From positions 2,435-55,360 of the forward strand of contig JACPSQ010000035.1 in the NCBI GenBank assembly GCA_016193195.1: a DNA stretch of 52,926 nucleotides, given 5' to 3'. The translations under genes were made by a program, and so were the position numbers. Within the stretch, counting starts at the first letter, position 1. Every line of letters starts with the position of its first letter. This DNA comes from Candidatus Omnitrophota bacterium (GTDB taxonomy: Bacteria > Omnitrophota > Gorgyraeia > Aquiviventales > Aquiviventaceae). Shown piece after piece: positions 1,560 through 23,057 of the stretch. The notes beneath the pieces are model-generated. The model saw nothing but the letters and a program-made list of their open reading frames with translations. It had not been told where the DNA came from and did no database searches.

Positions 1560-1568
1560 GGGAGCGCG

Positions 1569-4368: not shown

Positions 4369-4921
4369 GGCGCGGCCTCAGGAGCTGGCAGGTTGGCGTC
4401 ACGGGTTCGTGGAGCAACAAGGGCAGCATGCGCTGGTGGATGTCTGGGCACAGATCTCGACCCCTCGCGGGCTCCTGAGCTACCTGCCGAGGGCTCTCCT
4501 CATCGGCGTGTTCGCGCCATTTCCCTGGCAGTGGTTTTACACGGAAGGAAGCACCGGCGTCATGCGGGTGTTGTCCGGCGTGGAGATGCTCTTCTGGTAC
4601 TTCCTGGTTCCTGGGCTCCTGATTGGGAGTCGGAAGGTCATCACGTCCCGTCGGGCCGATCAGCTCTTCCTGCTGGCCTTCGGCGTGCTGGTTTTGGTGC
4701 CGATCGCGCTGGTGATTCCTAACCTCGGGACGCTCTACCGGCTCCGGCTGAGCGCGCTCCTGCCTCTGCTGATCATTGTAGCCGCAGGCGATCCACGCAG
4801 GTTCTACGAAGACCTCAGGCACTGGATGAAGGCTCATCGAGCAAGACGCGTGGCGCTGGCGTTTGAGCGGGATGTCACGGAGCCAGCGTCTGTAGAAATT
4901 TCGCTTCGCAAAATTTCCTAA
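4301..4921 (+). CDS. 4-TM membrane protein, probably the 3' part of the preceding gene in a different frame
   Basis: This frame opens at 4274, right after a TGA at 4271-4273. It overlaps the end of 2653..4368 by 68 nt. Possible starts are GTG 4301 or ATG 4319. Four hydrophobic segments are present ('LLIGVFAPFPWQWF', 'MLFWYFLVPGLLIG', 'LFLLAFGVLVLVPIALVIPNLG', 'LSALLPLLIIVAAG'). Confidence 0.55.
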   Translation: MPLGALMKGLSDVTTAARQTVSEARPQELAGWRHGFVEQQGQHALVDVWAQISTPRGLLSYLPRALLIGVFAPFPWQWFYTEGSTGVMRVLSGVEMLFWYFLVPGLLIGSRKVITSRRADQLFLLAFGVLVLVPIALVIPNLGTLYRLRLSALLPLLIIVAAGDPRRFYEDLRHWMKAHRARRVALAFERDVTEPASVEISLRKIS

Positions 4922-4926
4922 GCAGG

Positions 4927-6879: not shown

Positions 6880-6918
6880 GCAGCCGATGGCGTCCCGTTC
6901 GCCGGCCAGAGATTTTGG

Positions 6919-6947
6919 TTGCAGGGAGCCTGCGCTTTCTTTATACT
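6919..6947 (+). promoter_or_regulatory. Candidate sigma70-type promoter: TTGCAG (6919-6924), 17-nt spacer, TATACT (6942-6947)
   Basis: Read directly in the only AT-richer intergenic stretch (6880-6984). The spacing is canonical. It lies 38 nt upstream of ATG 6985. Confidence 0.5.
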
Positions 6948-6954
6948 CTCTTGA

Positions 6955-6973
6955 GTGTTCAGAATCTGAACAC
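6955..6973. promoter_or_regulatory. Perfect palindrome GTGTTCAG-AAT-CTGAACAC (8-3-8), candidate operator
   Basis: Read directly. It sits between the putative -10 and the regulator start codon, at or just after the expected transcription start. Confidence 0.6.
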
Positions 6974-6984
6974 TGGTCCTCATC

Positions 6985-7656
6985 ATGAAGATTGACGCCT
7001 ATCGTGATTTTCGGCTGCTGACCGAAATCTCCTCCGACGTCTCCGTCACCCAGCGGCAGCTGGCCAAGAAGTTCGGCCTGGCGCTGGGGTTGACCAACTT
7101 CCTGATGCGCCGGCTGGTGAGAAAAGGCCACATCAAGGCCGTCAACCTGGAACGCAAGCGCCTTCGGTATTTGCTCACGCCCAAGGGCGTGGCGGCCAAG
7201 GCCCGCCTGACTTACGACTATCTTGAGTACTCGCTCCACCTCTACCACGCCATCCGGACCTTTCTGGCGCACACGCTCTCCGTGATCGTGGAGTCGGGTC
7301 GCACCCAGACGGTCCTGGTGGGGACGGGCGAAGTGGCCGAGATCGCGTTTCTCATCCTGCAGCAGCACGGGGTGCAGGTCACCGCGGTCGCGGAGGAATC
7401 GCTCGACGGCCGAAGCCTCTTCTTTAACCAACAGGTGAGGACCCTGGAGGAGCTGTCCACCGTGTCCTATGATTGGGTCGTGATTGCCTCCTTCAAGGAT
7501 ACGCGGCCGATCCTCAACCGCCTGTCTCAGTGGGGGGTGCCGAAGGAGCGGATCATCAGGATTCCGGACCGGGAACCGGTGGACGCGGCTCACCCACTGC
7601 CGGTTGCGGCCATGCGCGATTCGTTGGAACCCGTCGTGGGGGCTCACCTCCTATGA
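6985..7656 (+). CDS. wHTH transcriptional regulator (MarR family, EPS-associated type) with an extra C-terminal Rossmann-like domain
   Basis: The N-terminus 'FRLLTEISSDVSVTQRQLAKKFGLALGLTNFLMRRLVRKGHIKAVNLERKRLRYLLTPKGVAAKARLTYDYLEYSL' fits the EPS-locus MarR pattern. The C-terminus 'TVLVGTGEVAEIAFLILQQHGVQVTAVAEE...YDWVVIASF' looks like a small nucleotide-binding/NeuD-N-terminal-like fold. Confidence 0.8.
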   Translation: MKIDAYRDFRLLTEISSDVSVTQRQLAKKFGLALGLTNFLMRRLVRKGHIKAVNLERKRLRYLLTPKGVAAKARLTYDYLEYSLHLYHAIRTFLAHTLSVIVESGRTQTVLVGTGEVAEIAFLILQQHGVQVTAVAEESLDGRSLFFNQQVRTLEELSTVSYDWVVIASFKDTRPILNRLSQWGVPKERIIRIPDREPVDAAHPLPVAAMRDSLEPVVGAHLL

Positions 7657-8378
7657 GGCCCAGACGCCGCATCCTGTGGACGTCCCTCTTTGCCGCGCTC
7701 GCTCTCGCGGGGCTCTGGGGCGTGGCCTCGTCTCCGGCCACGACGCGGCAGGGCGTCAACTTCGAGGTGTCGGCGAAGCGCATGCCCCTGTATGTGAAGA
7801 CGATCGACTTCCTCCATCGACACTCCCACTATCAATTGCTCGCCAACGAGATCACCCGGGGTCTTCGGTCAGACCGAGAGCGGGTCCTGGCCGTCTTTGA
7901 GTGGACGCGGCGGCATATCCGCCACACCCCAAAAGGCTGGCCGGTCGTCGATGACCATGTCCTGGACATCATCATCCGGGGGCACGGCCTGGACGACCAG
8001 ATGGCCGATGTCTTCACCACGCTGACGACCTACGCCGGCGTGCCGGCCTTCTGGTGGCCGGGCTCGGTGGTCGTGTCCTTTGCGCGCGTCGACGGACGAT
8101 GGCGGATGTTCGACGTCGCCAATGGGTTGATCTTCACCGATGCCCAGGGACAACTGGCAGATGTCCACGAGCTGCTGGATGAGCCTTCGCTGATCGACGC
8201 GGCTGCCGGCGGGCTGACTGCCGGAGGGCAGGTGTATGCCGAGTATGTGAGGAAGCGGCTGGGTTCGTTTGAGGTCCCCGCGGTGCTTCGGGCGGAGCAA
8301 CAGATGCCGCTGCCCAGGCTGACGTGTGAGATCCGCAGCGCAGTCCAGCACCTATGGGCAGCGCAGGATCACCCGTAA
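7653..8378 (+). CDS. Secreted/anchored transglutaminase-like protein, apparently lacking the catalytic Cys and His
   Basis: I prefer ATG 7653 (ATGA overlap with the regulator stop), giving signal-like 'MRPRRRILWTSLFAALALAGLWGVASS'. It is a clear paralogue of 45135..46250, but carries 'GHGLDDQMADVF' where the paralogue has 'GIGWCDYMAKVY', and 'SFARV' where it has 'HTVAEV'. Confidence 0.65.
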   Translation: MRPRRRILWTSLFAALALAGLWGVASSPATTRQGVNFEVSAKRMPLYVKTIDFLHRHSHYQLLANEITRGLRSDRERVLAVFEWTRRHIRHTPKGWPVVDDHVLDIIIRGHGLDDQMADVFTTLTTYAGVPAFWWPGSVVVSFARVDGRWRMFDVANGLIFTDAQGQLADVHELLDEPSLIDAAAGGLTAGGQVYAEYVRKRLGSFEVPAVLRAEQQMPLPRLTCEIRSAVQHLWAAQDHP

Positions 8379-8387
8379 GGAGGACGC

Positions 8388-9491
8388 GTGACAATCCCAT
8401 CAAGCCACTTTTTGGACGGCAAGACGATCTTGGTCACCGGGGGGACCGGGTCGTTTGGCCAGCAGTTCGTCGACACGGTCCTGAGACTCAGCCAGCCGGA
8501 AGCCATCCGTATCTACTCCCGTGACGAGCTCAAACAGCAGCAGATGCAGCGGCGCGTTCCGGATCAGCGGCTGCGGTTCCTCATCGGGGACGTACGCGAT
8601 AAGGAGCGGCTCTACCGGGCGATGCGAGGTGTGGAGATCGTGGTCCACGCGGCGGCGCTCAAGCAAGTTCCGGCGTGCGAATACAACCCCTTTGAAGCCG
8701 TCAAGACCAACGTGCTGGGGGCGGCCAATGTGATCGACGCGGCGATCGACTGTAGTGTTGACCGTGTGCTGGCGATCAGCACCGACAAGGCGGTCAACCC
8801 GATCAACCTCTATGGCGCGACGAAGCTCTGCGCCGAGAAGCTGTTCATCCAAGGCAATGCCTACTCAAGGGAGCGGAGGAAGCGGTTTAGCTGCGCGCGA
8901 TATGGCAACGTGGTCGCCAGTCGTGGCAGCGTGGTCCCCCTGTTCCTGCAACAACGGTCCAATGGGAGAATCACGGTGACGGATCGGCGGATGGCCCGGT
9001 TCTGGATGACCCTCGAGCAAGGGGTGGCATTCGTCTTGCGCTGCCTGGACCTCATGCATGGTGGTGAGATCTTTGTTCCGAAGATCCCAAGCATGAGCAT
9101 TATGGATTTGGCCAATGTGATCGCCCCTGGGTGCCGGATTACGTTCACAGGCATCCGGCCAGGGGAGAAGCTCCATGAGCTGCTCATTTCTCCTGATGAA
9201 GCCCAACATACCAGGGCGTTCCCAGACATGTTTGTCATCCAACCTGCCCACCCGTGGTGGACCACAGGTAGGTGGCGAGGAGGCACATCTCTGCCCGAAG
9301 GTTTTAGTTATAGCAGCGCCACGGCTCCGCGCCTGAGCGTGGAGGAGCTTGGCAGGATCGTCGCCCGGCTGGAGCAGCAGTCGGCCATCCCCGTCGTGCC
9401 AGATGGTGACGACGGCGACACGGCTCCCTTGACGCCTCCACAGCCCCGCGCACGGCCACGACGCACTCGGGTGTTGGTCAAACATGGCTGA
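8388..9491 (+). CDS. pseB: UDP-N-acetylglucosamine 4,6-dehydratase (inverting), PseB/FlaA1/CapD-type
   Basis: The start is GTG. Motifs: 'GKTILVTGGTGSFGQQFV', 'IRIYSRDELKQ', 'FLIGDVRDKERL', 'VVHAAALKQVPACEYNPFEAVKTNVLGAANV', 'ISTDKAVNPINLYGATKLCAEKLF'. A Pro/Arg-rich tail of about 35 aa extends beyond the usual length. Confidence 0.9.
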   Translation: MTIPSSHFLDGKTILVTGGTGSFGQQFVDTVLRLSQPEAIRIYSRDELKQQQMQRRVPDQRLRFLIGDVRDKERLYRAMRGVEIVVHAAALKQVPACEYNPFEAVKTNVLGAANVIDAAIDCSVDRVLAISTDKAVNPINLYGATKLCAEKLFIQGNAYSRERRKRFSCARYGNVVASRGSVVPLFLQQRSNGRITVTDRRMARFWMTLEQGVAFVLRCLDLMHGGEIFVPKIPSMSIMDLANVIAPGCRITFTGIRPGEKLHELLISPDEAQHTRAFPDMFVIQPAHPWWTTGRWRGGTSLPEGFSYSSATAPRLSVEELGRIVARLEQQSAIPVVPDGDDGDTAPLTPPQPRARPRRTRVLVKHG

Positions 9492-10710
9492 AGGAGAACC
9501 AAAGGCCGCTGCTCCCTTGGCATCCACCACGCTTGCGTTGGAGGCAAGCGTCCAGGCGCGGACGCCCATGCTGCCGTACGGCCGGCACACTGTGGTTGAG
9601 GCGGACATCCAAGCGGTGGTGGAGGTGTTGCGATCCGAGCGCCTGACGCAGGGTCCTGTGGTTGACGCGTTTGAGGCGGCGGTGGCCGAGGCCGTCGGGG
9701 CCCGCTACGCTGTGGCGTTCAGCTCGGGCACGGCCGCGCTCCATGCCGCGGTGTTTGCAGCCGGACTTGGGCCAGGGGATGAGGCGATTACAACGCCCCT
9801 GACCTTTTGCGCGACGGCCAACAGTGTGCTGTACCAGGGGGCCCAGCCGGTGTTTGCGGATGTGTGTCCTGATACGCTCAACCTCGATCCGAGCGAGGCC
9901 GCGAGGCGGGTCACCCCTCGCACGAAAGCGATCCTCCCGGTCGATTATGCGGGGCATCCAGCGGATCTTGACGCGTTCCTCGCGGTGGCCGATCGGCATG
10001 GCCTCGTCATCATCGAGGACGCCTGTCATGCCCTGGGCGCGACGTTCAAGGGTAAGCGGGTGGGGGGGCTGAGCCATATGACGGTGTTCAGCTTTCACCC
10101 CGTTAAGCACATCACGACCGGCGAGGGCGGGATGGTGACGACCGATCACCAGGGGTTCGCGCGTCGCCTGCGCGTGTTTCGCCAACACGGCATCGAGGAG
10201 GATGAGAGGCACCGGGATCCCCACCGGCCCTGGTACTACGAGATGACCGAGTTGGGGTACAACTACCGGCTGAGCGACATTGGCTGCGCGTTGGGACTCT
10301 CCCAATTGACGCGCCTCCAGGCGAACCTGGAGCGAAGGGCCGCCATCGCGCAGCGCTACCACGAGGCGTTTGGGAGTTTGCCAGGGCTGCGCTGTCCGGC
10401 GCAGAGATCCGGGGTCCGGCACGCGTGGCATCTCTATCCGATCCGCCTGGAGTCGCCAACGCACGGGATGGACAGGGCCAAGGTCATCCACGAGTTGCGG
10501 GCACGGGGGCTTGGGGTCAGCGTCCATTTCATTCCGGTGTACTGGCATCCCTATTACCGGCAGCGGCTTGGCATGCGGCCGGGGCTATGCCCTGTGGCGG
10601 AAGACGCCTATCACCAATTGATCAGCCTCCCGATGTTTCACGGCATGGGGCAGGACGAGGTTGAGCGGGTGATTGTAGCGGTGGCAGACGTCTTCAGGGC
10701 ACTGGCCTGA
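9484..10710 (+). CDS. pseC: DegT/DnrJ/EryC1-type aminotransferase, PseC-like (UDP-4-amino-4,6-dideoxy-N-acetyl-beta-L-altrosamine transaminase)
   Basis: 'LPYGRHTVVEADIQAVVEVLRSERLTQGPVVDAFE', 'FSFHPVKHITTGEGGMVTT' (PLP Lys) and 'NYRLSDIGCALGLSQL'. An alternative start at ATG 9568 (MLPYGRH) is equally plausible. Confidence 0.85.
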   Translation: MAEGEPKAAAPLASTTLALEASVQARTPMLPYGRHTVVEADIQAVVEVLRSERLTQGPVVDAFEAAVAEAVGARYAVAFSSGTAALHAAVFAAGLGPGDEAITTPLTFCATANSVLYQGAQPVFADVCPDTLNLDPSEAARRVTPRTKAILPVDYAGHPADLDAFLAVADRHGLVIIEDACHALGATFKGKRVGGLSHMTVFSFHPVKHITTGEGGMVTTDHQGFARRLRVFRQHGIEEDERHRDPHRPWYYEMTELGYNYRLSDIGCALGLSQLTRLQANLERRAAIAQRYHEAFGSLPGLRCPAQRSGVRHAWHLYPIRLESPTHGMDRAKVIHELRARGLGVSVHFIPVYWHPYYRQRLGMRPGLCPVAEDAYHQLISLPMFHGMGQDEVERVIVAVADVFRALA

Positions 10711-10717
10711 TTCCGAG

Positions 10718-12442
10718 ATGATGCAGGCGCGCTCCACAACCGATCAAGCGCCGGAGCGGTTCTATCAACGGTTTGGGCCGGACGGGCGAGTGCTGAACCC
10801 CACCTGGCCTCGGTTGACGACGGAAGCGTCCCTCCAGGCGTTCCCCTCGCGGCCGAGCGGCCGGCGGCTGCTGCTGATCAATGCGCCGATTCGGGAATGG
10901 TCCTATCCGAACATCATGCCCATCGGGCACGGGTATGTCGCTGCGGCGGCCATCATGGATGGCCATACGGTACGTGCCCTGGATCTGAATGCGGCGCGCC
11001 GAGGACCGATGCAGCTGGATGCCGAGGCCCTGGCCGCATGGGTTGAGCGACACGTGCTTGACGCGTTGGAAGAGGACAAGCCGGACGTCATTGGGCTGGG
11101 CGGCATTGTGACCCAGTACGCCCGGATCAAGCAGGTCGCCCGCCTCTGCAAGTCCGTGTATCCCGATGTCCCCATCGTGCTGGGCGGGGGTATTGCGTCC
11201 TCGATTCCGGAGTTCATGGTCCAACGCCTGCCGGTCGATGTGGCGGTGCAAGAAGAAGGCGAAGTGACGTTCTCTGAGTTGCTTCATCGGCTGGAGGAGG
11301 GGGCGTCCCTTGAAGGACTGAGGGGCACGGTGTCTCGACGGACCATTCGTCCAGGTGAGTGGGACATCCGCAATCACGGCTTGCGTCCCTCCGTCAAGAG
11401 TCGAACCCTTGGGCTGGATGCGCTGCCTTGGCCGCTGAGGACGCTCTGGCCGATTGACGGGGTCTACAAGCGCAACCCTGTCGGACACCTCAACTGGAAG
11501 ACGAAGTGGATTGATGGCGCGCCCACCGGGCCGGATCAGTATTCGGAGTCCATGATCGCTTCCAGGGGATGCCCTTATGCGGCGCGTGCGTGCGACTACT
11601 GCTACGCGGCCTATCTGGGCAAGCAGTATCGGCTCCGGAGCCCTCAGGATATAGTGGATGAAATGGAATTCCTCAAGCGGCGCTACGGGCTGTGCTACAT
11701 CCATTTCCTGGATGACCTCATGATGACGGATTTTCGGTGGGCCCTGGAGTTCTGCGCGGAGCTGCGCCAGCGCCGCCAACGGACGGGATTTGCCATCATG
11801 TGGGGCGGAACGTGTCGAACCAACATCGTGGCCGATGACGTCATTCGGGCTCGACAGGAAGGCCGGCCGCACATGCTGGAACAGGCGTTTGAGGTCGGGA
11901 TGCGGCAGGCAGGCTATGGGGTGGAATCCGCGAGCCCCACGATCCTCAAGGCCATTGATAAGAGCGGACAGACTGTGGAGAAGATGGAGCTGGCGATTCG
12001 GGAGACTCGGCGCATTATGGGCTACGCGGACTGCTCCTTCATGATCGGTTCTCCAAGCGAGTCTCGAGAGACCGTTCAGGAGACGGTGGACTTTTGCCGG
12101 CGCGTGGGGCTCAAGCCGGAGGTGTTCTTCTTCACGACGGCCTATCCGGCGACGACCTTTTGGGCCCTGGCGCTGGAGAAGGGCCTGATCGCCAAAGCCG
12201 TCACCGGCAAGCCCGGTCCGGCTGATGAGGACATCATTGAGGAGTACCTGATCCGGCTGGGTGAGCAGGGGGAGGCGATTCGGACGAACTTCAGCGACCT
12301 GCCGGATGAGGAAGTGGTGGACCTCTCGTGGTGGGCGATTCAGGAGCTGGGGGCCCAGAACACCGTGCGGCATCCCCACACGGGTGATGAGCAGGTGTTG
12401 AGGAAGAGCGCGGTTCGTGGCGCGACGCGGGCGGACCTCTAG
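10718..12442 (+). CDS. B12-binding-domain radical SAM protein (class B-like)
   Basis: The N-terminal B12-binding-like region is 'RLLLINAPIREWSYPNIMPIGHGYVAAAAIMDGHTVRALDLN...VIGLGGIVTQY...VPIVLGGGIAS'. The radical SAM core is 'IASRGCPYAARACDYCYAAY' followed by 'IHFLDDLMM'. Confidence 0.85.
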   Translation: MMQARSTTDQAPERFYQRFGPDGRVLNPTWPRLTTEASLQAFPSRPSGRRLLLINAPIREWSYPNIMPIGHGYVAAAAIMDGHTVRALDLNAARRGPMQLDAEALAAWVERHVLDALEEDKPDVIGLGGIVTQYARIKQVARLCKSVYPDVPIVLGGGIASSIPEFMVQRLPVDVAVQEEGEVTFSELLHRLEEGASLEGLRGTVSRRTIRPGEWDIRNHGLRPSVKSRTLGLDALPWPLRTLWPIDGVYKRNPVGHLNWKTKWIDGAPTGPDQYSESMIASRGCPYAARACDYCYAAYLGKQYRLRSPQDIVDEMEFLKRRYGLCYIHFLDDLMMTDFRWALEFCAELRQRRQRTGFAIMWGGTCRTNIVADDVIRARQEGRPHMLEQAFEVGMRQAGYGVESASPTILKAIDKSGQTVEKMELAIRETRRIMGYADCSFMIGSPSESRETVQETVDFCRRVGLKPEVFFFTTAYPATTFWALALEKGLIAKAVTGKPGPADEDIIEEYLIRLGEQGEAIRTNFSDLPDEEVVDLSWWAIQELGAQNTVRHPHTGDEQVLRKSAVRGATRADL

Positions 12443-12461
12443 GGTGATGGATGAAGGAAGG

Positions 12462-12857
12462 ATGCGATTGATTCTCCTGGGTGCTGGCTCAATCGGGCGG
12501 CGTCACCTCCAGAATGCCCTGGCGTTGGGGCATGAGGTGGTGGCCGTCGCTGATCCCGATCCCTCGAGCCTGGGGCTGGTCCGACGCCAGTGGCACATCC
12601 CCGTGCTGACGGCAGACGTCTCGGAGGCGTTTCGACAGCGGGCCGAGGCGGCGGTGATCTGTTCGCCGACCGTAGAGCATGTGTCGCAGGCTCGGTGGGC
12701 GGTGCGCGAGGGCCTCCATGTGCTTGTTGAGAAACCCCTTTCGCACACGCTGGATCAGGTGGATGAACTGATTGCGGAAGCGGCTGCCGCCCAGCGGGTT
12801 GTCCTCATCGGATGTAACCTGCGGTTCTTCCCAAGCTTGCAGGGGAGTGCTCCTTGA
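12462..12857 (+). pseudogene. Gfo/Idh/MocA oxidoreductase, N-terminal Rossmann fragment ending at a frameshift/deletion
   Basis: ATG 12462 is preceded by 'gaaggaagg'. The sequence reads 'MRLILLGAGSIGRRHLQNALALGHEVVAVADP...VICSPTVEHVSQARWAVREGLHVLVEKPLS...LIGCNLRFFPSLQ', then GSAP-stop. The matching C-terminal domain continues in another frame (next feature). Confidence 0.7.
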
Positions 12858-14931
12858 CTGGATCCACGAGTTTGATTATCTGCGCTGGTTCTTTGGGCAG
12901 GTCGGGGAGGTGTTCTGCTATACCGGGACCACGGGGACGCTGGATGTGGAGGTCGAGGACTACGCGGAAGTCCTCTTGCGATTTGACGCCGGCGTCGTCG
13001 CGAATGTCCATCTGGACTACCTGCAGCGGACCTACCGTCGCTCATGCGAGATTATCGGCGCTGAGGGCGTGCTCATCTGGGACTACATCGCCCAGACCGT
13101 GACGTGCTACGGCAGGACGGATCGCCAGGTCGAAGTCTTCACAGAGCAGATCGATACAGAACGGAATCAGATGTTCCTTGAAGAAAGGATGAACGGTGAG
13201 GGGGTCTTTCGCTCGGTCAGCGTGATTGCCGACATGGCCCTGTCGTATGAGGGATCGTATGATCTGGCCTTGGCGACCGTGGAGGCCGCCGCGGAGGCCC
13301 ATGCAGGCGCCATCAATTTTCAGATTTTCCTCGCGGATGAGTTGGCCGTGCCAGGCTACCACTATTACCCCTTGTATACCCGGCTGGAATTGCCGCCCGA
13401 ACGCTGGGCGAGCCTCATCACTCATGCACATCAGCGTGGCCTGAAGGTTACCGCGAATGTCTTCGGAGCCGCGACGGCCATGTGGCTTGCCGAGGCCGGC
13501 GTCGACGCCTTCAAGGTTCACGCGGCCGATGTCGGCAACCGCCCCTTCCTGCAGCGGATCGGTGCGCTCGGCAAGCCGGTCCTCCTGTCGGCTGGCGGCA
13601 GTACGCTCGGAGAAATCAGCCATGCCCTCCGCGTCCTCCAACAACACGGCGCCCCTGAGGTGGCCCTCCTGGCGGGCGTGCAGAACACCCCGACGGCAGT
13701 GGACGACACCCACCTCGCCCGCATCCGGTTGTTGAAAGAACGCTTCGGCCTACCCGTGGGCTATGCCGATCACCTGGATGCCGACGCCCCTCTGGCTCCC
13801 GTCGTGCCGCTCCTGGCGATTGCAGCCGGTGCTGACTTCGTGGAAAAACACATCACCCTGGCCCGGGCGCTCAAGCGCGGGGACTATGTCTCTGCGCTGA
13901 ACCCGGATGAGTTTGCGGAGTTTGTCTTGCGTCTCCATGAGGCTCGCCGGTGCGTGGGGGTGCCGGGAGGGGATTTGGGAGAAGGGGAGCTCTCCTACCG
14001 AGAGGGCATGAAGAAGCGCGTCGTGGCAAGGCGGAGCCTCGAAGCCGGCCACGCGCTGCGTGAAGAGGATCTGACGCTGCTCAGGACGGACGAACCGAGC
14101 GATCTGTGGACGCTGGAACACGCCGTGGGTCGGGCCGTTTCACGAACGATTTCCCAATACGGCTCGATCGGCGAGCGCGATCTCTCGGCTCGTCCTGACG
14201 CTCTCAAACGGCTCGTGGCGGTGCTGTTGTGCCGGGCGAGTTCCTCCCGGCTGTATGCCAAACCGCTTCAGCGCGTCGGGGACAAGACGATCCTCGAGCA
14301 TCTCATTGGCCAGATCCGCTTGATCCCACGCCTTGACGAGATCATCCTGGCTATCAGTGAAGGGCCGGCGAATGCAGGATTTGTCAAACTGGCCAACCAG
14401 TTGGATCTGGACTATGTCATCGGGGACGAAGAAGACGGGCTGAGCCGCATGCTTCGCGCTGCGGAGTTTGCGCGTGCGGACACCGTGTTTCGCGTCACCA
14501 CAGAGAATCCGTTCTTGCACATCGAGAACATCAACCAGCTCATCGAGACGCATGCGGAGCGCCAATCGGATTTGACCTATTGCGACCGGCTGCCGGAAGG
14601 GACGTTTTCGGAGCTGGTGGAGCTGTCCGCCTTGCGGCGGTCCTATGAGCGGGGAACCAGACGCCACCGCAGCGCCTGGGTCAATCTCTATATCCGGGAG
14701 CACCCGGAGCAGTTCCGCATCGCGACCCTGCTGCCGCCTGAGGAACTGCAGCGTCCGGAGATCAGGCTGACCGTGGATTATCCGGAGGACCTGATCGTCG
14801 CGCGCAAGGTCTATGAGGCCTTCGACGGCCGGATGCCGATCCCCATCCGCTCGATCATCAGGTTTCTGGACGAGCATCCGGAGATCAAGGCGATCAACCA
14901 AGGCCTGGAAGTTGGGGCGCTGCCCGTCTGA
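12772..14931 (+). CDS. Fusion ORF: Gfo/Idh/MocA C-terminal remnant + NeuB/SpsE-like synthase with SAF domain + SpsF/PseF-type cytidylyltransferase
   Basis: 'GVLLDWIHEFDYLRWFFG...EDYAEVLLRFDAGVVANVHLDY' is the Gfo C-terminal domain. 'VIADMALSYEG...AINFQIF...LLSAGGSTLGEI...VGYADHLD...FVEKHITL' plus the SAF-like 'RVVARRSLEAGHALREEDL' is NeuB-like. 'VAVLLCRASSSRLYAKPLQRVGDKTILEHLI...VIGDEEDGLSRML...FRVTTENPF...RLTVDYPEDL' is the cytidylyltransferase. The functional start is uncertain: TTG 12772 per the ORF track, and the internal ATG 13189 would give a NeuB-like+CT protein. Confidence 0.75.
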   Translation: MRKRLPPSGLSSSDVTCGSSQACRGVLLDWIHEFDYLRWFFGQVGEVFCYTGTTGTLDVEVEDYAEVLLRFDAGVVANVHLDYLQRTYRRSCEIIGAEGVLIWDYIAQTVTCYGRTDRQVEVFTEQIDTERNQMFLEERMNGEGVFRSVSVIADMALSYEGSYDLALATVEAAAEAHAGAINFQIFLADELAVPGYHYYPLYTRLELPPERWASLITHAHQRGLKVTANVFGAATAMWLAEAGVDAFKVHAADVGNRPFLQRIGALGKPVLLSAGGSTLGEISHALRVLQQHGAPEVALLAGVQNTPTAVDDTHLARIRLLKERFGLPVGYADHLDADAPLAPVVPLLAIAAGADFVEKHITLARALKRGDYVSALNPDEFAEFVLRLHEARRCVGVPGGDLGEGELSYREGMKKRVVARRSLEAGHALREEDLTLLRTDEPSDLWTLEHAVGRAVSRTISQYGSIGERDLSARPDALKRLVAVLLCRASSSRLYAKPLQRVGDKTILEHLIGQIRLIPRLDEIILAISEGPANAGFVKLANQLDLDYVIGDEEDGLSRMLRAAEFARADTVFRVTTENPFLHIENINQLIETHAERQSDLTYCDRLPEGTFSELVELSALRRSYERGTRRHRSAWVNLYIREHPEQFRIATLLPPEELQRPEIRLTVDYPEDLIVARKVYEAFDGRMPIPIRSIIRFLDEHPEIKAINQGLEVGALPV

Positions 14932-14933
14932 CG

Positions 14934-16217
14934 ATGCGCGACTCGCATTCGCAGGAGTGGCTCGCCCGCAGCCGCCAGGTGATTCCCGGTTGCACACAAA
15001 CGTTCAGCAAAGGTCCTACGCAGTTCGTGCAGGGCGCCTCGCCAGCCTTCCTCGTCCGCGGGCGCGGCAGTCACGTCTGGGACGTGGATGGCCAGGAGTA
15101 TCTCGATTACTCGATGGCCCTAGGGCCGGTCATTCTGGGATATCGCGATCCGGTCGTCACCAAGGCGGTGAAACGGCAACTAGAGTCTGGGACGATCTTT
15201 TCACTGCCACATCCACTTGAAGTCGAGGTCGCCGAACTGCTCACCCAGGTTGTCCCATGCGCCCAGATGGTGCGATTCGCCAAGAACGGCTCTGATGCGA
15301 CCGCGGGCGCGGTGAGACTCGCCAGGGCCGTGACAGGACGGGATCTCATCGCGTGCTGTGGCTACCATGGGAATCAGGACTGGTACATTGGGACGACCAC
15401 GCGCAATCGGGGCGTGCCCGAATCGGTTCGACGCTTGACCATCCCGTTTGTCTATAACGACATTGACAGTCTTGCGCGGATCTTCGCCGAGCATCCCCAC
15501 CAGGTTGCTGCGGTGATCATGGAACCGGTAGGCCTTGAGCCGCCGCGCGAGCAGTTTTTGGAACAGGTACGCGACCTGACGCATCGGGAAGGCGCGGTCC
15601 TCATCTTTGATGAAGTGCTGACAGGATTCCGCGTGGCGCTGGGTGGGGCGCAGGAGTACTTCGGCGTCACACCTGACCTGGCCTGCTTCGGCAAGGCCAT
15701 GGCGAACGGCTACCCCCTGTCAGCCGTGGTCGGACGACGGGAGATCATGGAAGCGTTTGAAGAGGTCTTCTTCTCGTTTACGTTCGGGGGGGAAGCGCTC
15801 TCGCTGGCCGCGGCGAAGGCGACGATCACAACGCTGCGCAGCCACGCGATCATTCCGCAGTTGTGGGAACATGGTCGTCGCCTTCAAGACGGATTCAACC
15901 GACTGGCGGCTCAGTTCGGTCTTGCGCAGCGCGTCGTCTGTGAGGGACTGCCGCCGCGGACGATGGTGAGCTTCACCGATGGGACCGGAGCTGAGTCGCT
16001 GCCAGTGAAGAGCTTGTTTCAACAGGAGTGTCTGACGCGCGGCGTGCTGTTTTCAGGAAGCCACAACCTGTGCGCCAGCCACACTCGGGAAGACGTGGAA
16101 CAGACCCTCCGGGTGTATCGGGAAGCGATGGCGGTCGTGGCAGAGGCCGTGGCGGCTGGCGATGTCCTGGAGCGGCTGCAGGGTACGCCGGTGCAGCCGG
16201 TCTTCCGTCGCGCCTAG
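14934..16217 (+). CDS. Class III (HemL/glutamate-1-semialdehyde aminomutase-like) PLP aminotransferase
   Basis: 'RGRGSHVWDVDGQEYLDYSMALGPVILGY', 'FDEVLTGFRVALGGAQEYFGVTPDLACFGKAMANGYPLSAVVGRREIM' (Lys in FGKAM). Confidence 0.9.
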   Translation: MRDSHSQEWLARSRQVIPGCTQTFSKGPTQFVQGASPAFLVRGRGSHVWDVDGQEYLDYSMALGPVILGYRDPVVTKAVKRQLESGTIFSLPHPLEVEVAELLTQVVPCAQMVRFAKNGSDATAGAVRLARAVTGRDLIACCGYHGNQDWYIGTTTRNRGVPESVRRLTIPFVYNDIDSLARIFAEHPHQVAAVIMEPVGLEPPREQFLEQVRDLTHREGAVLIFDEVLTGFRVALGGAQEYFGVTPDLACFGKAMANGYPLSAVVGRREIMEAFEEVFFSFTFGGEALSLAAAKATITTLRSHAIIPQLWEHGRRLQDGFNRLAAQFGLAQRVVCEGLPPRTMVSFTDGTGAESLPVKSLFQQECLTRGVLFSGSHNLCASHTREDVEQTLRVYREAMAVVAEAVAAGDVLERLQGTPVQPVFRRA

Positions 16218-16230
16218 CATCAGGTCATCC

Positions 16231-18102
16231 ATGCGGATCGTATTCCTGGGAAATAACTGGGTCGCGTGGCAGGCGCTTCGCTGGTTGAAGGCCCAAGGCG
16301 AATTGATCGTGGGATTAGTGGTGCATCCGCCCCACAAGCAGCGCTATGGCGAGGAGCTGCTCAGCACCGTGGCAGGTGATGCGACGAAGTGCTTTGACGG
16401 CTCGCGGCTGCGGGAGCCGGGAACGATTGCGGCCATTCGGGATCTTCAGGTTGAGATGGCCGTGTCCGTCTCGTTTGGTTACCGCTTGGATCCGTCGTTC
16501 CTGGCGCTGTTCCCGCGCGGGGTCATCAACCTCCATGCAGGCTACCTCCCGTACAACCGGGGCACGCATCCCAACATCTGGAGCATTGTCGAAGGGACCC
16601 CGGCTGGCGCGACGCTCCATTACGTCGATGCCGGGATCGACACGGGAGACATTATTGCACAACGAGCGATTCCAGTGGAGCCAACGGACACGGGTGAGAC
16701 GCTGTATCGAAAGCTTGAACGAGTCTGCATGGAGCTGTTGATGGCAACGTGGCCGTCAATTCGCGACGGCACGGCACCTCGGCACCCACAGCCGTCAGGA
16801 GGCACGGCGCATCAGCGGCGGGATGTGGAGCGCATCGATGAGATCGCACCCGAGCGCCGGTATACAGCTAGGGAATTGATCGACATCCTTCGCGCACGGA
16901 CCTTCCCTCCCTACCCCGGAGCCTATCTCCGGCATGGGGGGCAGAAGATCTCCCTGCGTCTTTCTGCCGCCAAGGAAGACCACCCCGCCCCATGGCTTCA
17001 GCCAACGATTGATATCGGGTGCCGGCGTATTGGTGCTGGCTATCCAACCTACATCGTTGCGGAGATTTCAGCGAATCACAACCAGGACTTTGAGCTGGCC
17101 GTGAAACTGCTTCAGGCGGCCAAGGCTGCCGGGGCGGATGCGGTGAAGCTGCAAACCTACACCCCAGAGACCATGACGATTCCTTGTCACCGCGAGCCGT
17201 TTCAGATCAAGGGCACCCTGTGGGATGGACAGACCCTCTACGATCTCTACCGCCGAGCGTACACGCCGTGGGAGTGGCACCCAAAGCTGAAAGCGGTCGC
17301 GAACGAGATGGGTCTCGATCTGTTTTCGACCGCCTTTGACGCCACGGCTGTGGATTTCCTGGAATCCCTGGGGGTGCCGGTTCATAAGGTCGCTTCGTTT
17401 GAGATGGTGGATCTGGCTTTGTTGGCGAAGATGGCCCTGACCGGCAAGCCGGTGATCCTCTCGACAGGGATGGCAACCTTCCAGGAGATCGCTGAAGCGG
17501 TGCAGACCGTTCGCGGGGTGGGTGCGACGACACAAGTCGCGCTGCTCAAGTGCACAAGTGCCTATCCCGCACTTCCTGAAGAGATGAACCTGCGTGCCAT
17601 CCCGCACTTGACCGAGCAGTTTCAGGTACCCGTCGGCCTCTCGGATCACACCCTGGGCACGTCCGTTGCACTTGCCGCAGTCGCGCTTGGCGCCTGCATG
17701 GTGGAGAAGCATTTGACCCTCTCTCGCTCTGTTGCCACGCCGGATGCGGCCTTTTCCCTTGAGCCCGACGAGTTCAAGGCGATGGTGAAAGGGGTTCGGG
17801 AGGTGGAGCGGGCCCTGGGAGAGGTGCGTTATGGAGTCAGTCGTGGGGAGACCCAGAGCCAGGTCTTCCGGCGTTCCCTGTTCGTGGTGAGAGGGATGAA
17901 AGCCGGAGAGGTGTTTTCAGAGCGGAATGTCCGGTCGATCCGGCCGGGTTATGGGCTCCACCCCCGATACCTGAAGGACGTGTTGGGGCGGCAGGCGAGG
18001 TGTGATATTGCTGGGGGGACACCCTTCGCGTGGAAACTGGTGGACCCAGCGGGAGCAGAGGCTGCCTCGCCGGAAGAACCGAGTGCCAAGCGTGTGACCT
18101 GA
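16231..18102 (+). CDS. pseI: Fusion: Fmt-like N-formyltransferase domain + pseudaminic acid synthase (PseI/NeuB family) with SAF domain
   Basis: I prefer ATG 16231 ('MRIVFLGNNWVAWQALRWL'). The formyltransferase triad context is 'INLHAGYLPYNRGTHPNIWSIVEGTPAGATLHYVDAGIDTGDII'. The synthase part starts around 17005: 'TYIVAEISANHNQDFELAVKLLQAAKAAGADAVKLQTY', 'VGLSDHTLG', 'MVEKHLTL', and SAF 'SLFVVRGMKAGEVFSERNVRSIRPG'. Confidence 0.85.
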   Translation: MRIVFLGNNWVAWQALRWLKAQGELIVGLVVHPPHKQRYGEELLSTVAGDATKCFDGSRLREPGTIAAIRDLQVEMAVSVSFGYRLDPSFLALFPRGVINLHAGYLPYNRGTHPNIWSIVEGTPAGATLHYVDAGIDTGDIIAQRAIPVEPTDTGETLYRKLERVCMELLMATWPSIRDGTAPRHPQPSGGTAHQRRDVERIDEIAPERRYTARELIDILRARTFPPYPGAYLRHGGQKISLRLSAAKEDHPAPWLQPTIDIGCRRIGAGYPTYIVAEISANHNQDFELAVKLLQAAKAAGADAVKLQTYTPETMTIPCHREPFQIKGTLWDGQTLYDLYRRAYTPWEWHPKLKAVANEMGLDLFSTAFDATAVDFLESLGVPVHKVASFEMVDLALLAKMALTGKPVILSTGMATFQEIAEAVQTVRGVGATTQVALLKCTSAYPALPEEMNLRAIPHLTEQFQVPVGLSDHTLGTSVALAAVALGACMVEKHLTLSRSVATPDAAFSLEPDEFKAMVKGVREVERALGEVRYGVSRGETQSQVFRRSLFVVRGMKAGEVFSERNVRSIRPGYGLHPRYLKDVLGRQARCDIAGGTPFAWKLVDPAGAEAASPEEPSAKRVT

Positions 18103-18115
18103 TCCGGTTGGTACG

Positions 18116-19234
18116 GTGATGGCGGTGGTGTTGTTTCGGACAGACGCTGCTCCTGCAGTTGGCCTCGGCCACCTGCGACGGTGCCTTTCGCTGGCGGCAG
18201 CGCTCCAACGGCAGGATGTGCGCAGTGTGTTTGTGGTCCCGGAGGATCGACAGGTTCGCCGGTGCGTCAGGGAGGCAGGGTGCAGCATCGAGATCGTGGA
18301 GCGTGTCACGGCGGGGGATGCCGTTGATCTGCAGCACGTGCTCCGTGCGGCAAGCCGCTCCGAGGCCGCCGCGGTGATCGTGGATTCCTACCAGATCGGT
18401 GCGGACTACCTGGAGGCGCTTCGGCAGGCAGGACTGTATGTCGCGGTCATTGATGATCTGGCAGCCATGGCCTTTCCGTGCCACGTGGTGGTCAACGGTG
18501 GGCCGCATGCGTGCCGGTTGCCGTACCGTTCGTCCTCCGGGGAAACCACGTTCTTGCTCGGTCCCTCCTATGCGTTGCTGGGTCCAGCATTCTGGAACGT
18601 TGGCCCTCGACCGGTGCGCCAGACCGTGCAGCATGTCCTGCTCACGCTGGGCGGGGCGGATCCTCATCACCTGATGCCGAGGCTGCTGGGCCTGCTCGAC
18701 GATCTCCCTGGCGAGTTTGGCGTCACGGCCGTGATTGGCCCATTCTTCCAGAACCGTCTTGAGGTTCAACATGTGGCCAAGCGGTGCCAACGAACGGTGA
18801 GGCTCGTTGATGCGCCGGCGTCCCTGCGTGACCTGATGCTCGAGGCGGACCTTGCTGTGTCGGCTGGCGGACAGACCTTGTTCGAGCTGGCGCGTGTGGG
18901 ATGTCCCGCCGTTGCCGTCAGGACCGCATCGAATCAGGTCGCTCAGCTACGGGCCTTTGTGGAGTCTGGAGCTATGCGCCTTGCAGGAGACGCCGGGGAT
19001 GCCCACGTGATGGCTGCCGTACGTGACAGCGTGGCCTCATTGGTGGGGGATCAGGGGGAACGAGGTCGCATGAGCCTGGCGGGCCGTCGGCTCGTCGACG
19101 GACGAGGCGCCCAACGGACCGCCGACGCGATTGCAGCGGGGATTCGGACGCGGCTGGCCGCGGCGATCAAGCGCAATGAGGTGGAGCACCGGCTCGAAGG
19201 GCGCATGGTCTCGCCGGTGTTTCGGACGGCGTGA
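18116..19234 (+). CDS. pseG: PseG-like UDP-2,4-diacetamido-2,4,6-trideoxy-beta-L-altropyranose hydrolase (GT28-C-like fold)
   Basis: 'VVLFRTDAAPAVGLGHLRRCLSLAAALQRQDV', 'VLLTLGGADPHHL', 'ADLAVSAGGQTLFELARVGCPAVAV'. The start is GTG 18116 or ATG 18119. Confidence 0.8.
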   Translation: MMAVVLFRTDAAPAVGLGHLRRCLSLAAALQRQDVRSVFVVPEDRQVRRCVREAGCSIEIVERVTAGDAVDLQHVLRAASRSEAAAVIVDSYQIGADYLEALRQAGLYVAVIDDLAAMAFPCHVVVNGGPHACRLPYRSSSGETTFLLGPSYALLGPAFWNVGPRPVRQTVQHVLLTLGGADPHHLMPRLLGLLDDLPGEFGVTAVIGPFFQNRLEVQHVAKRCQRTVRLVDAPASLRDLMLEADLAVSAGGQTLFELARVGCPAVAVRTASNQVAQLRAFVESGAMRLAGDAGDAHVMAAVRDSVASLVGDQGERGRMSLAGRRLVDGRGAQRTADAIAAGIRTRLAAAIKRNEVEHRLEGRMVSPVFRTA

Positions 19235-20346: not shown

Positions 20347-20515
20347 GCCGTCGTCTCCGACGGGCGATGCGGCGGGGGGAGCATGTCACCTGGGAGGCGC
20401 TTGAGTGACCATGGCGCGGCAGGTTCGGCATGTGTCGCTGGTCCCAGCTCGGGGAAGGAACGCGACTAGCAGCGTGGAGCGGCGGGTCCCTCGAGGGATG
20501 CGAGGTCGCGTGCTC

Positions 20516-21061
20516 ATGGGATCACGGCTGTGCCTGCGACCACTGACGGAGGCTGACGTGACCACGGAGTACCTGAGGTGGCTGAACGATCCCGAGGTCA
20601 CGCGGTTCCTCGAGGTCGGTCGGCAGCGCTCCACGCGCCAGACGGTGCGCAGGTACCTCACGCGGTTCCACGGCAGCCGAACGGACTTCATCTTTGCGAT
20701 GATCGAGAGGGAGACCGGACGCCACATCGGCAACGTCACCCTCAATCGGATACATCGAGTTGACCGCACGGCCGATACGGGCCTGATGATCGGACGGAAG
20801 GACCTGTGGGGAAAAGGATATGCCAGCGAGGCCTGGAGTCTTGTGCTGGCGCATGCGTTCCGGGATCTTGGGGTGCGGAAGGTGGTAGCGGGGGTGGTAG
20901 TGGACAACGTCCGGAGCCTCCAGGCCCTGAAGAAAGTTGGTTTTCGCGTTGAAGGGGTCCTTCGCCAAGAGTGGTTCGTCAACGGGACCTACAAGGATAT
21001 CGTGCGGCTCGGCCTGTTCAGCCATGAGTTCGAGCCTAAGAGCGCTCTAAAGGGTGGATGA
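20516..21061 (+). CDS. GNAT-family N-acetyltransferase (RimJ/RimL-like; candidate PseH-type step)
   Basis: I prefer ATG 20516 ('MGSRLCLRPLTEADVTTEYLRWLNDPEV'). Also 'IGNVTLNRIHRVDRTADTGLMIG...WGKGYASEAWSLVLAHAF..LGVRKVVAGVVVDNVRSLQALKKVGFRVEG'. Confidence 0.8.
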   Translation: MGSRLCLRPLTEADVTTEYLRWLNDPEVTRFLEVGRQRSTRQTVRRYLTRFHGSRTDFIFAMIERETGRHIGNVTLNRIHRVDRTADTGLMIGRKDLWGKGYASEAWSLVLAHAFRDLGVRKVVAGVVVDNVRSLQALKKVGFRVEGVLRQEWFVNGTYKDIVRLGLFSHEFEPKSALKGG

Positions 21062-23046: not shown

Positions 23047-23057
23047 GAAGTTCCGTC

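Follow-up and report, generated by a model that had tools for sequence, protein, structure and literature searches.

Pseudaminic and legionaminic acids are virulence factors and rank among the main sugars of cell surfaces and flagella; to our knowledge, no radical SAM step belongs to the pathways described for their synthesis. Class B radical SAM enzymes, characterized by a B12-binding domain, are mostly methyltransferases, as far as they have been studied, and include the sugar C-methylases GenK and GenD1, which act on aminoglycoside sugars; Fom3, a further C-methyltransferase of this type, acts on CMP-activated hydroxyethylphosphonate. Other enzymes of similar architecture carry out different chemistry: HpnJ contracts the ring of a glucosamine unit, and we know of no evidence characterizing HpnJ, BchE or BzaD as a methyltransferase. 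AprD4 (6fd2), a radical SAM diol dehydratase working on an aminosugar, carries a B12-like domain without using cobalamin, so that the domain alone is no proof of a cobalamin-dependent reaction.

In this work, we describe a class B radical SAM enzyme, composed of a B12-binding Rossmann domain and a radical SAM core, encoded in a stretch of 52,926 nucleotides (the window) from a Candidatus Omnitrophota bacterium (contig JACPSQ010000035.1). It is best explained as belonging to a close-knit orthologous family, not described before, that serves pseudaminic-acid-type nonulosonic acid (NulO) biosynthesis in an accessory role. To our preferred reading as a whole, a class B family dedicated to NulO synthesis and catalyzing cobalamin-dependent C-methylation, we assign a probability of about 0.45.

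The open reading frame is intact, and its 574-residue product represents the long form of its clade. Both Pfam domains score above their cutoffs (61.9 bits against 32.1 for PF02310, 48.2 against 29.5 for PF04055, the latter matched over model positions 2-166 of 166), and neither a SPASM nor a twitch domain was found in the protein. In the alignment of orthologues, the Gly-rich loops of the B12 domain (G126/G128/G129, G156-G158 and E179-G181) are invariant, as is the stretch Y400-G401-x-E403-S404-x-S406-P407 of the core. The AlphaFold model (pLDDT 82, pTM 0.87), of low confidence at residues 296-301, directly C-terminal of the cysteine motif, was matched by Foldseek to the cobalamin-type radical SAM structures TsrM (6wte), OxsB (5ul4), AprD4, MgmA (9ccb), CysS (9n1d) and TokK (7kdx), with E-values of 1e-22 to 1e-13 and TM-scores of about 0.5-0.6 for the class B structures. 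Membership in the superfamily is thus supported by the PF04055 core and the fold of solved structures, although the canonical CX3CX2C motif is missing; the assignment to class B follows from the N-terminal Rossmann-type PF02310 domain and from cobalamin-bound class B enzymes being the top structural matches. Domain models and predicted fold agree with what an earlier note on this DNA, made from the sequence alone, had proposed, a B12-type radical SAM enzyme, and they support the B12-binding fold that it had left to be confirmed. With TsrM, OxsB, TokK, CysS and MgmA the protein shares the Rossmann B12 domain and a partial TIM-barrel core, but identity is only 15-20%, CX6CX2C takes the place of their CX3CX2C, and the family is set apart by an N-terminal extension of about 50 residues, by internal insertions and by a C-terminal tail. 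Their substrates are a carbapenem, peptides, nucleosides or tryptophan, whereas the genomic context here is that of a nucleotide-sugar/NulO pathway.

The unusual motif lies in the peptide RGCPYAARACDYC, and a scan of the whole protein identified C285-x6-C292-x2-C295 as the sole triad, neither CX3CX2C nor CX2CX4C occurring anywhere in the 574 residues. Among 120 orthologues, CPYAxxACDYC was found in 119 and CX3CX2C in none; C285 and C295 are present in all of them and C292 in 119, and the three cysteines are invariant in the alignment of long and short forms. Sister proteins with 51-54% identity and relatives of about 455 residues, 34-41% identical, feature the canonical motif at this site, where CX6CX2C aligns column for column with their CFYRCDFC, CPYSCDYC and CPYxCxYC. 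Because the canonical motif occupies this position in relatives, the alignments show CX6CX2C to be, as far as sequence comparison goes, a normal triad with a three-residue A-x-x insertion between Cys1 and Cys2; the spacing is by the same token a trait of the family. In AprD4, by contrast, the spacing is altered between Cys2 and Cys3 (CX3CX3C).

Two other ways of reading the cysteines were considered and rejected. The ungapped HMMER alignment to TokK would make C292 the third ligand and C295 an extra cysteine, but C-x3-CD[FY]C stands at this site in the sister proteins of 51-54% identity, and the insertion model was therefore preferred. A hidden canonical triad or a second cluster would have to be built from the other invariant cysteines, C144, C366, C439 and C460, which are scattered; in the AlphaFold model C366 ends its strand while C439 begins its own (C-terminal and N-terminal ends, respectively), which places the two at opposite ends of the barrel, and C366, C439 and C460 are not conserved over the wider clade. 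The search for a canonical triad elsewhere, suggested by the earlier note, thus returned none, and its description of a single CX6CX2C cluster stands. In one orthologue, P0121, an intein is inserted directly before C295. Intein insertion sites typically mark catalytically essential residues, and the third cysteine is so marked here. Expanded spacing has precedents: radical SAM groups with CX4, CX5, CX6, CX7, CX8, CX9 and CX11 between Cys1 and Cys2 are listed at RadicalSAM.org (PMC9477430), indicating that insertions at this point are tolerated. The CX6CX2C group of that resource, Megacluster-5-2 (DUF5131), was discarded as kin, being unrelated; the B12-binding subgroup is Megacluster-2-1.

The features of the locus are reported in Table 1. 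The TGA stop of pseC, whose product passes its equivalog cutoff, is separated from the ATG of the radical SAM gene by just 7 nt (ttccgag), as the earlier note had stated. Its placement of the gene between pseC and the synthase genes holds in part: NeuB-type synthases do lie downstream, but the gene directly following is a disrupted GFO/IDH/MocA oxidoreductase, the disruption being read by tblastn of intact homologues from loci L010, L019 and L009. The C-terminal part of this oxidoreductase (Pfam GFO_IDH_MocA_C) opens the frame 12772-14931, which it shares with the synthase, SAF and cytidylyltransferase domains, and for which both NeuB and PseI equivalog scores remain under their cutoffs. All four of PseB, PseC, PseG and PseI exceed the NCBIfam cutoffs in the window, an extensive EPS-type locus that encodes numerous further enzymes. 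No similarity was found between the 574-residue protein and the six known Pse enzymes (PseB, C, H, G, I and F), beside which it is, from its sequence, an additional enzyme.

Table 1. Features of the pseudaminic-acid-type locus around the radical SAM gene (positions in the window)
Feature	Position	Strand	Evidence
pseB, UDP-GlcNAc 4,6-dehydratase (inverting)	8388..9491	+	TIGR03589, 463.7 bits vs 407.75
pseC, aminotransferase	9484..10710	+	TIGR03588, 465.3 bits vs 423.5
Radical SAM gene (B12-binding-domain protein, 574 aa)	10718..12442	+	ORF, Pfam, orthologues, AlphaFold
Rossmann-type B12-binding domain, residues 67-189	10916..11284	+	PF02310, invariant Gly-rich loops, Foldseek
Radical SAM core, residues 280-460	11555..12097	+	PF04055, invariant motif
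Cys motif C285-PYAARA-C292-DY-C295 (CX6CX2C)	11570..11602	+	Canonical triad with 3-residue insertion, alignments
GFO/IDH/MocA oxidoreductase, disrupted (two reading frames, about 38 residues missing)	12446..13185	+	tblastn, Pfam
NeuB-like synthase, SAF and CTP_transf_3 cytidylyltransferase domains	13219..14931	+	Pfam
Class-III aminotransferase resembling glutamate-1-semialdehyde aminomutase	14934..16217	+	PF00202, 188 bits; NF004856, 446 bits, below 486
N-formyltransferase-PseI (pseudaminic acid synthase) fusion	16162..18102	+	Formyl_trans_N, N_formyltrans_C, TIGR03586, 473 bits vs 340
pseG, UDP-sugar hydrolase	18116..19234	+	TIGR03590, 185 bits vs 153.55
GNAT acetyltransferase, PseH-like candidate	20405..21061	+	Acetyltransf_3, 112 bits; TIGR03585 (PseH), 38 bits, below 93

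More than 120 orthologues were found at 69-79% identity; altogether, the orthologues span over 12 bacterial phyla and DPANN archaea, with identities of 64-79%, and include one from a cultured organism, Lusitaniella coriacea LEGE 07167 (locus L019). The gene content of 25 orthologue loci was established by tblastn with the proteins of the window, automatic ORF clustering being confounded by antisense ORFs in high-GC DNA and by fusion proteins. Homologues of pseB, pseC, pseG or pseI lie within 10 kb in all 25, bearing out the co-occurrence with Pse-type glycan clusters; the order pseB-pseC-radical SAM gene recurs, and the radical SAM gene is usually found between pseC and a cytidylyltransferase or synthase gene. 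Over these loci the radical SAM protein is 64-78% identical, against about 45-66% for PseB, 41-63% for PseC and 23-46% for PseG. In about 12 of the 25 loci, and also in L035, the class-III aminotransferase is found next to the radical SAM gene and the oxidoreductase; 13 loci have the oxidoreductase, with or without the aminotransferase. One locus, L001, contains three B12 radical SAM genes. The canonical-motif clade, 34-41% identical, has the same neighbors, as in the arrangement DegT-rSAM-GFO-CTP_transf_3-Aminotran_3-NeuB, and canonical-motif relatives also occur in NulO clusters of flagellar and phage-like contigs. The presence of Pse genes in 25 of 25 loci, together with the location of these relatives in NulO clusters, indicates an enzyme dedicated to this sugar pathway, to which the protein very probably belongs.

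The opposite view is that the enzyme only travels with the cluster and acts on some other product of the locus, such as another polysaccharide sugar, a lipid carrier or a protein. It could draw on the many other enzymes of the window, on the three B12 radical SAM genes of L001 and on the occurrence of other such genes in glycan loci devoid of NulO genes. Phage and plasmid databases yielded no orthologues, their best matches being B12 radical SAM genes of 25-29% identity, and NulO genes are absent from the two Azospirillum plasmid loci inspected around genes of this kind. We nevertheless regard this view as very improbable, as the Pse/NulO core genes are the only ones common to loci of more than 12 phyla, CPR bacteria, DPANN archaea and phage-like contigs, and the gene has a usual place among them.

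For a family dedicated to NulO synthesis, the absence of a canonical triad elsewhere, the Pse genes of all 25 loci and the B12 fold together support well that radical chemistry takes place on a Pse-pathway sugar, which is one half of what the earlier note had suggested. The other half, C-methylation of the GenK/GenD1/Fom3 type, fared less well, no methyltransferase model coming near its cutoff: KedN5, HpnR, RiPP C-methyltransferase, MgmA, PhpK and TsrM models score 23-63 bits with the protein, against cutoffs of 282-700, and no family-level sequence relationship to GenK, GenD1 or Fom3 was detected, nothing related lying above cutoff. Methylation remains our leading guess for the reaction, although a tentative one, held at somewhat less than even odds; rearrangement, oxidation, deamination and epimerization are alternative candidate reactions. 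Use of cobalamin by the protein is suggested indirectly, by the invariant Gly-rich loops and by the sequence match of its B12 domain to that of the cobalamin-binding TokK, AprD4 matching only the core. No relevant paper connecting radical SAM enzymes with pseudaminic, legionaminic or nonulosonic acid was found in the literature searches, in line with the earlier note, whose author was not aware of such a modification of Pse/Leg-type sugars.

No curated family claims the 574-residue protein as a member above its cutoff. Its best curated matches, ApyD, the ladderane radical SAM protein, BchE (TIGR02026, 76.9 bits against 481.35), HpnJ (TIGR03471, 74.5 against 577.6) and BzaD, as well as OxsB among the best structural matches, would speak for a reaction of the same pathway not involving methylation: the amino sugar could undergo radical rearrangement, be cyclized or be oxidized without oxygen, as with HpnJ, OxsB or BchE, or it could be epimerized at a stereocenter to yield a Pse stereoisomer. 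HpnJ and BchE are also the best curated families for the short form, matched over nearly the full length (193 and 182 bits), and HpnJ, like the proposed enzyme, acts on an amino sugar. Moreover, many of the clusters already contain class-I SAM methyltransferases, and a cysteine conserved close to where the fourth core strand ends (C366 in the long form, two residues earlier in many short forms) could donate a hydrogen atom. Yet all of these scores are far under the family cutoffs (193 bits, for instance, against 578 for HpnJ; the cutoff for BchE is 481) and thus show no orthology to either enzyme; genomically, these two belong to the making of hopanoids or bacteriochlorophyll, not of NulOs. 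The retention of PseI and PseG in all clusters speaks for a normal hexose-type substrate still arriving at the synthase, and we are not aware of any NulO whose skeleton is rearranged. A reaction without methylation is, on balance, possible but rather unlikely.

A cobalamin-independent radical lyase of the AprD4/DesII kind is a further option. From UDP-4-amino-4,6-dideoxy-AltNAc, such an enzyme would take H-3 and expel the 4-amino group (or it would dehydrate a diol); the resulting keto sugar would pass to the neighboring oxidoreductase or class-III aminotransferase. DesII does act on an analogous substrate, TDP-4-amino-4,6-dideoxyglucose; AprD4, itself with a non-canonical motif, is among the best matches by both sequence and fold; the gene directly follows pseC, and a dehydrogenase and an aminotransferase lie downstream in about half of the loci. 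On the other hand, the AprD4 model NF033070 yields 38.8 bits against a cutoff of 500, its CX3CX3C motif is missing from the protein, and the similarity to AprD4 concerns the core, the B12 domain aligning instead with that of TokK. Loss of N-4 would also block formation of a 5,7-diamino NulO, while PseG, PseI and N-acyltransferases are kept throughout, and the radical SAM gene is often found without an aminotransferase. We therefore consider a lyase improbable.

C-methylation, the preferred reading, might proceed as follows. C285, C292 and C295 would hold a [4Fe-4S] cluster, binding SAM and cleaving it reductively; the 5'-deoxyadenosyl radical would then take a hydrogen atom from a Pse-pathway sugar, candidate substrates being the PseC product UDP-4-amino-4,6-dideoxy-L-AltNAc, its N-acylated form or CMP-Pse. 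The cobalamin of the N-terminal domain would deliver a methyl group to the substrate radical, resulting in a C-methylated sugar, extended, for example, at the 6-deoxy/C9 methyl. Where they are found downstream, the GFO-type dehydrogenase and the class-III aminotransferase could oxidize and transaminate this product and so add one more amino group. The scheme parallels that at C6' of gentamicin, where GenQ and GenB1 act after GenK; the two neighboring genes mirror GenQ and GenB1 by analogy. Against this full methylation and amination route, about half of the loci lack both the oxidoreductase and the aminotransferase, and the oxidoreductase of the window is disrupted.

Possible products of such a route have been reported. 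C10 'higher-carbon' CMP-ulosonic acids without assigned genes are described in PMC8157484 and in the SugarBase preprint, among them CMP-activated species of Magnetospirillum gryphiswaldense (m/z 679.198, 693.214 and 707.230). By our mass calculation, these values fit three-nitrogen formulas, C15-17H25-29N3O8. The family and its canonical-motif relatives might be the missing C10 ulosonic acid enzymes, C-methylating the terminal 6-deoxy/C9 methyl of a Pse/Leg-type sugar and producing triamino C10 sugars with the adjacent GFO dehydrogenase and class-III aminotransferase; this is a speculative and unlikely identification. If true, sialic-acid-like sugar chemistry would gain a new branch, one spread over uncultured phyla, CPR bacteria, DPANN archaea and phages. 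Mass spectrometry has detected C10 ulosonic acids since 2020, and their genetic origin could now be tested, a cultured carrier and candidate substrates being at hand.

Sister proteins differing by a three-residue insertion in the cluster-binding loop also provide a natural experiment for enzymology. The radical SAM enzymes of NulO clusters extend over more than 12 bacterial phyla, two archaeal lineages and phage-like contigs. A dedicated and extremely conserved B12-type enzyme implies an undescribed carbon-centered modification of pseudaminic and legionaminic acids, and these observations point to an undescribed radical step, possibly a carbon methylation, in the making of sialic-acid-like surface sugars.

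Domain architecture places the product of the radical SAM gene among the class B radical SAM enzymes, with cobalamin binding putative; the N-terminal region, described in an earlier note as cobalamin-binding-like, does match the Pfam B12-binding domain (see the table). An AlphaFold2 model, obtained from an input of 57 family members, features a mean pLDDT of 82 and a pTM of 0.87, low confidence being limited to the termini and to residues 256-268 and 296-301. Its top matches in a Foldseek search of the PDB are TsrM, OxsB, AprD4, MgmA, CysS and TokK (E-values 1e-22 to 1e-13, TM-scores about 0.5-0.6, identity 15-20%).

Features of the window and of two loci from other genomes; positions are nucleotides unless residues are indicated
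Feature	Position	Strand	Description
Radical SAM gene	10718-12442	+	intact ORF, 574 residues
B12-binding domain	residues 67-189		Pfam, 61.9 bits (cutoff 32.1)
Radical_SAM core	residues 280-460		Pfam, 48.2 bits (cutoff 29.5), whole model covered
Motif cysteines	11570-11602		C285, C292, C295
Disrupted GFO/IDH/MocA oxidoreductase gene	12446-13185		two reading frames, ORFs 12417-12857 and 12772-14931
Recurrent module, window copy	12446-16217		
NeuB-family synthase paralogues	12772-14931, 16162-18102, 28438-30291		
EPS-like system	4927-7656, 21058-25034		
Locus L001 (Omnitrophota, JACOVG010000006.1)	362-11740		three different B12-binding radical SAM genes
Locus L019 (Lusitaniella coriacea)	3040-5142		E1 dehydrogenase alpha and beta subunit genes

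The peptide RGCPYAARACDYC was confirmed, and a motif scan found no CX3CX2C in the entire protein, so that the CX6CX2C reading of the core cysteines stands. Among the 120 top-ranking database sequences (69-79% identity to the query), 119 carry CPYAxxACDYC and none the canonical triad, the sole exception featuring a Gly in place of C292. Seven cysteines are invariant in the family: C144, C285, C292, C295, C366, C439 and C460. Canonical spacing is found just outside it, as CFYRCDFC in a protein 51% identical to the query (P0122), as CPYSCDYC in two IMG/VR proteins (54%), and as C-x3-C-x2-C in every complete relative among 150 representatives at 26-41% identity. A second, larger family consists of shorter proteins (about 455 residues, 34-41% identical, canonical motif), which lack the N-terminal extension, internal insertions and C-terminal tail of the long form. 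In a joint alignment the columns of C285, C292 and C295 are invariant and the long form has three additional residues (A-x-x) behind 'CPY'; C292 and C295 are therefore assigned as Cys2 and Cys3, with a lengthened Cys1-Cys2 loop. A different register, proposed by an ungapped HMMER alignment to TokK, was rejected, being contradicted by the canonical triads of the relatives and by the joint alignment. In the long form, the CX6 spacing is a derived trait. Expanded Cys1-Cys2 spacings are on record in other radical SAM groups, and the CX6CX2C group of RadicalSAM.org is DUF5131, outside the B12-binding subgroup (PMC9477430). One orthologue of 931 residues from the representative library (P0121) contains a LAGLIDADG homing-endonuclease intein directly before C295 (query nt 11600-11602): the insertion, which begins with Ala and ends with SHN, falls between ...ACDY and CYAAYLG, so that the third cluster cysteine is the +1 residue of the intein. 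Intein insertion sites are typically essential catalytic residues.

No curated NCBIfam family claims the protein, the best scores (ApyD 95.7, ladderane-lipid radical SAM protein 94.5, BchE 76.9, HpnJ 74.5, BzaD 73.6) being far under the cutoffs of 360-750. Once the library is clustered at 50% identity, one or two representatives of the family are left, and beyond these identity drops to 41% or less. When one genome per GTDB species was scanned, 25 orthologue loci (64-78% identity) emerged, in Planctomycetia, Omnitrophota, Nitrospiria, Rokubacteria, Methylomirabilia, Terriglobia, Chloroflexota, Verrucomicrobiota, Pseudomonadales, Chromatiales, Sericytochromatia, the cultured cyanobacterium Lusitaniella coriacea LEGE 07167, two CPR lineages and one Pacearchaeota archaeon; named database matches add Cytophagales, Anaerolineae, Betaproteobacteria and Bathyarchaeia. 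In an alignment of 120 sequences, 235 of the 574 columns are at least 98% identical. Within the same 25 loci, identity to the copies in the window is lower for PseB (about 45-66%), PseC (41-63%) and PseG (23-46%), and the radical SAM gene is therefore the most conserved of the cluster. So far uncharacterised, this distinct family is widespread and has a conserved non-canonical cluster motif.

In the window, the two genes upstream encode PseB and PseC, both above NCBIfam equivalog cutoffs, and exactly 7 nt separate the pseC stop codon from the ATG of the radical SAM gene, as previously stated. NeuB-type synthase genes, PseG and acyltransferases lie downstream; the placement between pseC and the synthase genes thus holds in outline, but the direct 3' neighbour is a disrupted GFO gene, the one factual detail of the earlier note in need of correction. 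The latter is about 38 residues short in comparison with intact homologues in three other loci (L010, L019 and L009), and its C-terminal part continues in frame into a NeuB-like and CTP_transf_3 fusion; three readings fit, namely pseudogene, fusion or assembly error. Two of the three synthase paralogues are NeuB-like domains fused to CTP_transf_3, under both the NeuB and PseI cutoffs, and the remaining one is a genuine PseI joined to an N-formyltransferase. The EPS-like system of the window includes an XrtA/PEP-CTERM-type-like amidotransferase (590 bits) and an EPS-associated regulator of the MarR family (69 bits), neither reaching its cutoff (817 and 88), along with proteins of 662 and 658 residues weakly similar to asparagine synthase and to the PFTS-motif polysaccharide family, respectively.

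When the proteins of the window were compared by tblastn with the 25 loci, homologues of pseB, pseC, pseG and/or pseI were found within 10 kb in all of them, which bears out the co-occurrence looked for, and the order pseB-pseC-radical SAM in at least 9. Gene calls and Pfam labels on selected loci agree. An Omnitrophota locus reads PseB, PseC, radical SAM, CTP_transf_3, an unknown gene, NeuB and a PseG/GNAT fusion; in Cytophagales the radical SAM and CTP_transf_3 genes lie beside a divergent pseB/pseC/NeuB set; Lusitaniella features PseB, PseC, two class-I methyltransferases, radical SAM, GFO, CTP_transf_3, class-III aminotransferase, PseG, GNAT, formyltransferase, PIG-L and PseI. At the head of the Lusitaniella cluster, genes for a thiamine-diphosphate-dependent E1 dehydrogenase may provide an unusual N-acyl group. 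In L001, two of the three B12-binding radical SAM genes, which share one glycan locus with an interposed GHMP kinase and GT2 glycosyltransferase, encode proteins with just some 25% identity to the query. The family's only constant genomic partners are the core set of genes for making Pse-type nonulosonic acids. This context argument is strong, and a substrate outside the Pse pathway is very improbable.

Thirteen of the 25 loci have the GFO gene either before or behind radical SAM, and about 12 of these also carry a class-III aminotransferase. A recurrent module (loci L005, L008, L009, L010, L012, L013, L016, L018, L019, L022, L028, L029, L035 and L039) combines radical SAM and GFO-type dehydrogenase, usually with a cytidylyltransferase and, in most loci, with the aminotransferase, which resembles glutamate-1-semialdehyde aminomutase. 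The module recalls GenK, GenQ and GenB1 of gentamicin, an analogy suggesting that a third amino group may be installed on the sugar.

A 5'-deoxyadenosyl radical, derived from SAM at the [4Fe-4S] cluster, would abstract hydrogen from a sugar of the Pse pathway. Class B enzymes characterised so far are mostly methyltransferases, among them GenK and GenD1, which act on sugars; because of this precedent, of the intact, invariant B12-domain loops and of the gentamicin-like trio, we tentatively propose cobalamin-dependent C-methylation, with a probability of roughly 0.4. Against it, among curated families the wider clade most resembles HpnJ and BchE; a radical rearrangement, an oxidation or an epimerisation is possible, if doubtful. 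AprD4, whose sequence alignment with the query is confined to the core, whereas that of TokK reaches the B12 domain, shows that a B12-like domain need not use cobalamin and also counts against methylation; an AprD4/DesII-type elimination is unlikely.

For C-methylation, a possible product may be considered. [quoted passage not shown] 2020, PMC8157484; SugarBase preprint 10.64898/2026.04.20.719630). By our calculation these masses fit C15H25N3O8, C16H27N3O8 and C17H29N3O8, and the 693 species a C10 backbone with two N-acetyl groups, one O-acetyl group and a free amine. We only hypothesize that a C-methylating radical SAM enzyme, with an oxidation/transamination pair, would yield exactly such a triamino C10-type sugar.

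Short-form genes have the same surroundings: CTP_transf_3 follows in a flagellar locus; Margulisbacteria feature DegT, radical SAM, GFO, CTP_transf_3, Aminotran_3, an AP_endonuc_2-family gene and NeuB; Phycisphaerae feature NeuB, GNAT, radical SAM and CTP_transf_3; a phage-like contig carries DegT, a PseB-like gene, CTP_transf_3, GNAT, PIG-L and NeuB, and several IMG/VR contigs have neighbours of the same kind. Since both forms also share signature segments (PIREW-x2-PN after the first strand, NPVG-x2-N-x3-KW-x-DG and LGEQGE-x2-R-x-NF), they appear to serve one pathway. Canonical-motif relatives occur on viral-classed or phage-like contigs (L031, L033/L034, L039-L046; many small ORFs, HNH, HTH_17, adenylosuccinate synthase), adjoining, except on the short contig L031, PseB-like, DegT, CTP_transf_3, GNAT, PIG-L and NeuB genes; phages could therefore carry a modified pathway for nonulosonic acids.

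Full-text literature searches found no paper in which pseudaminic, legionaminic or nonulosonic acids are connected with a radical SAM enzyme. The pathway, so far without a known enzyme of this type, thus gains a class B radical SAM family, whose motif variant is new for the B12-binding subgroup.
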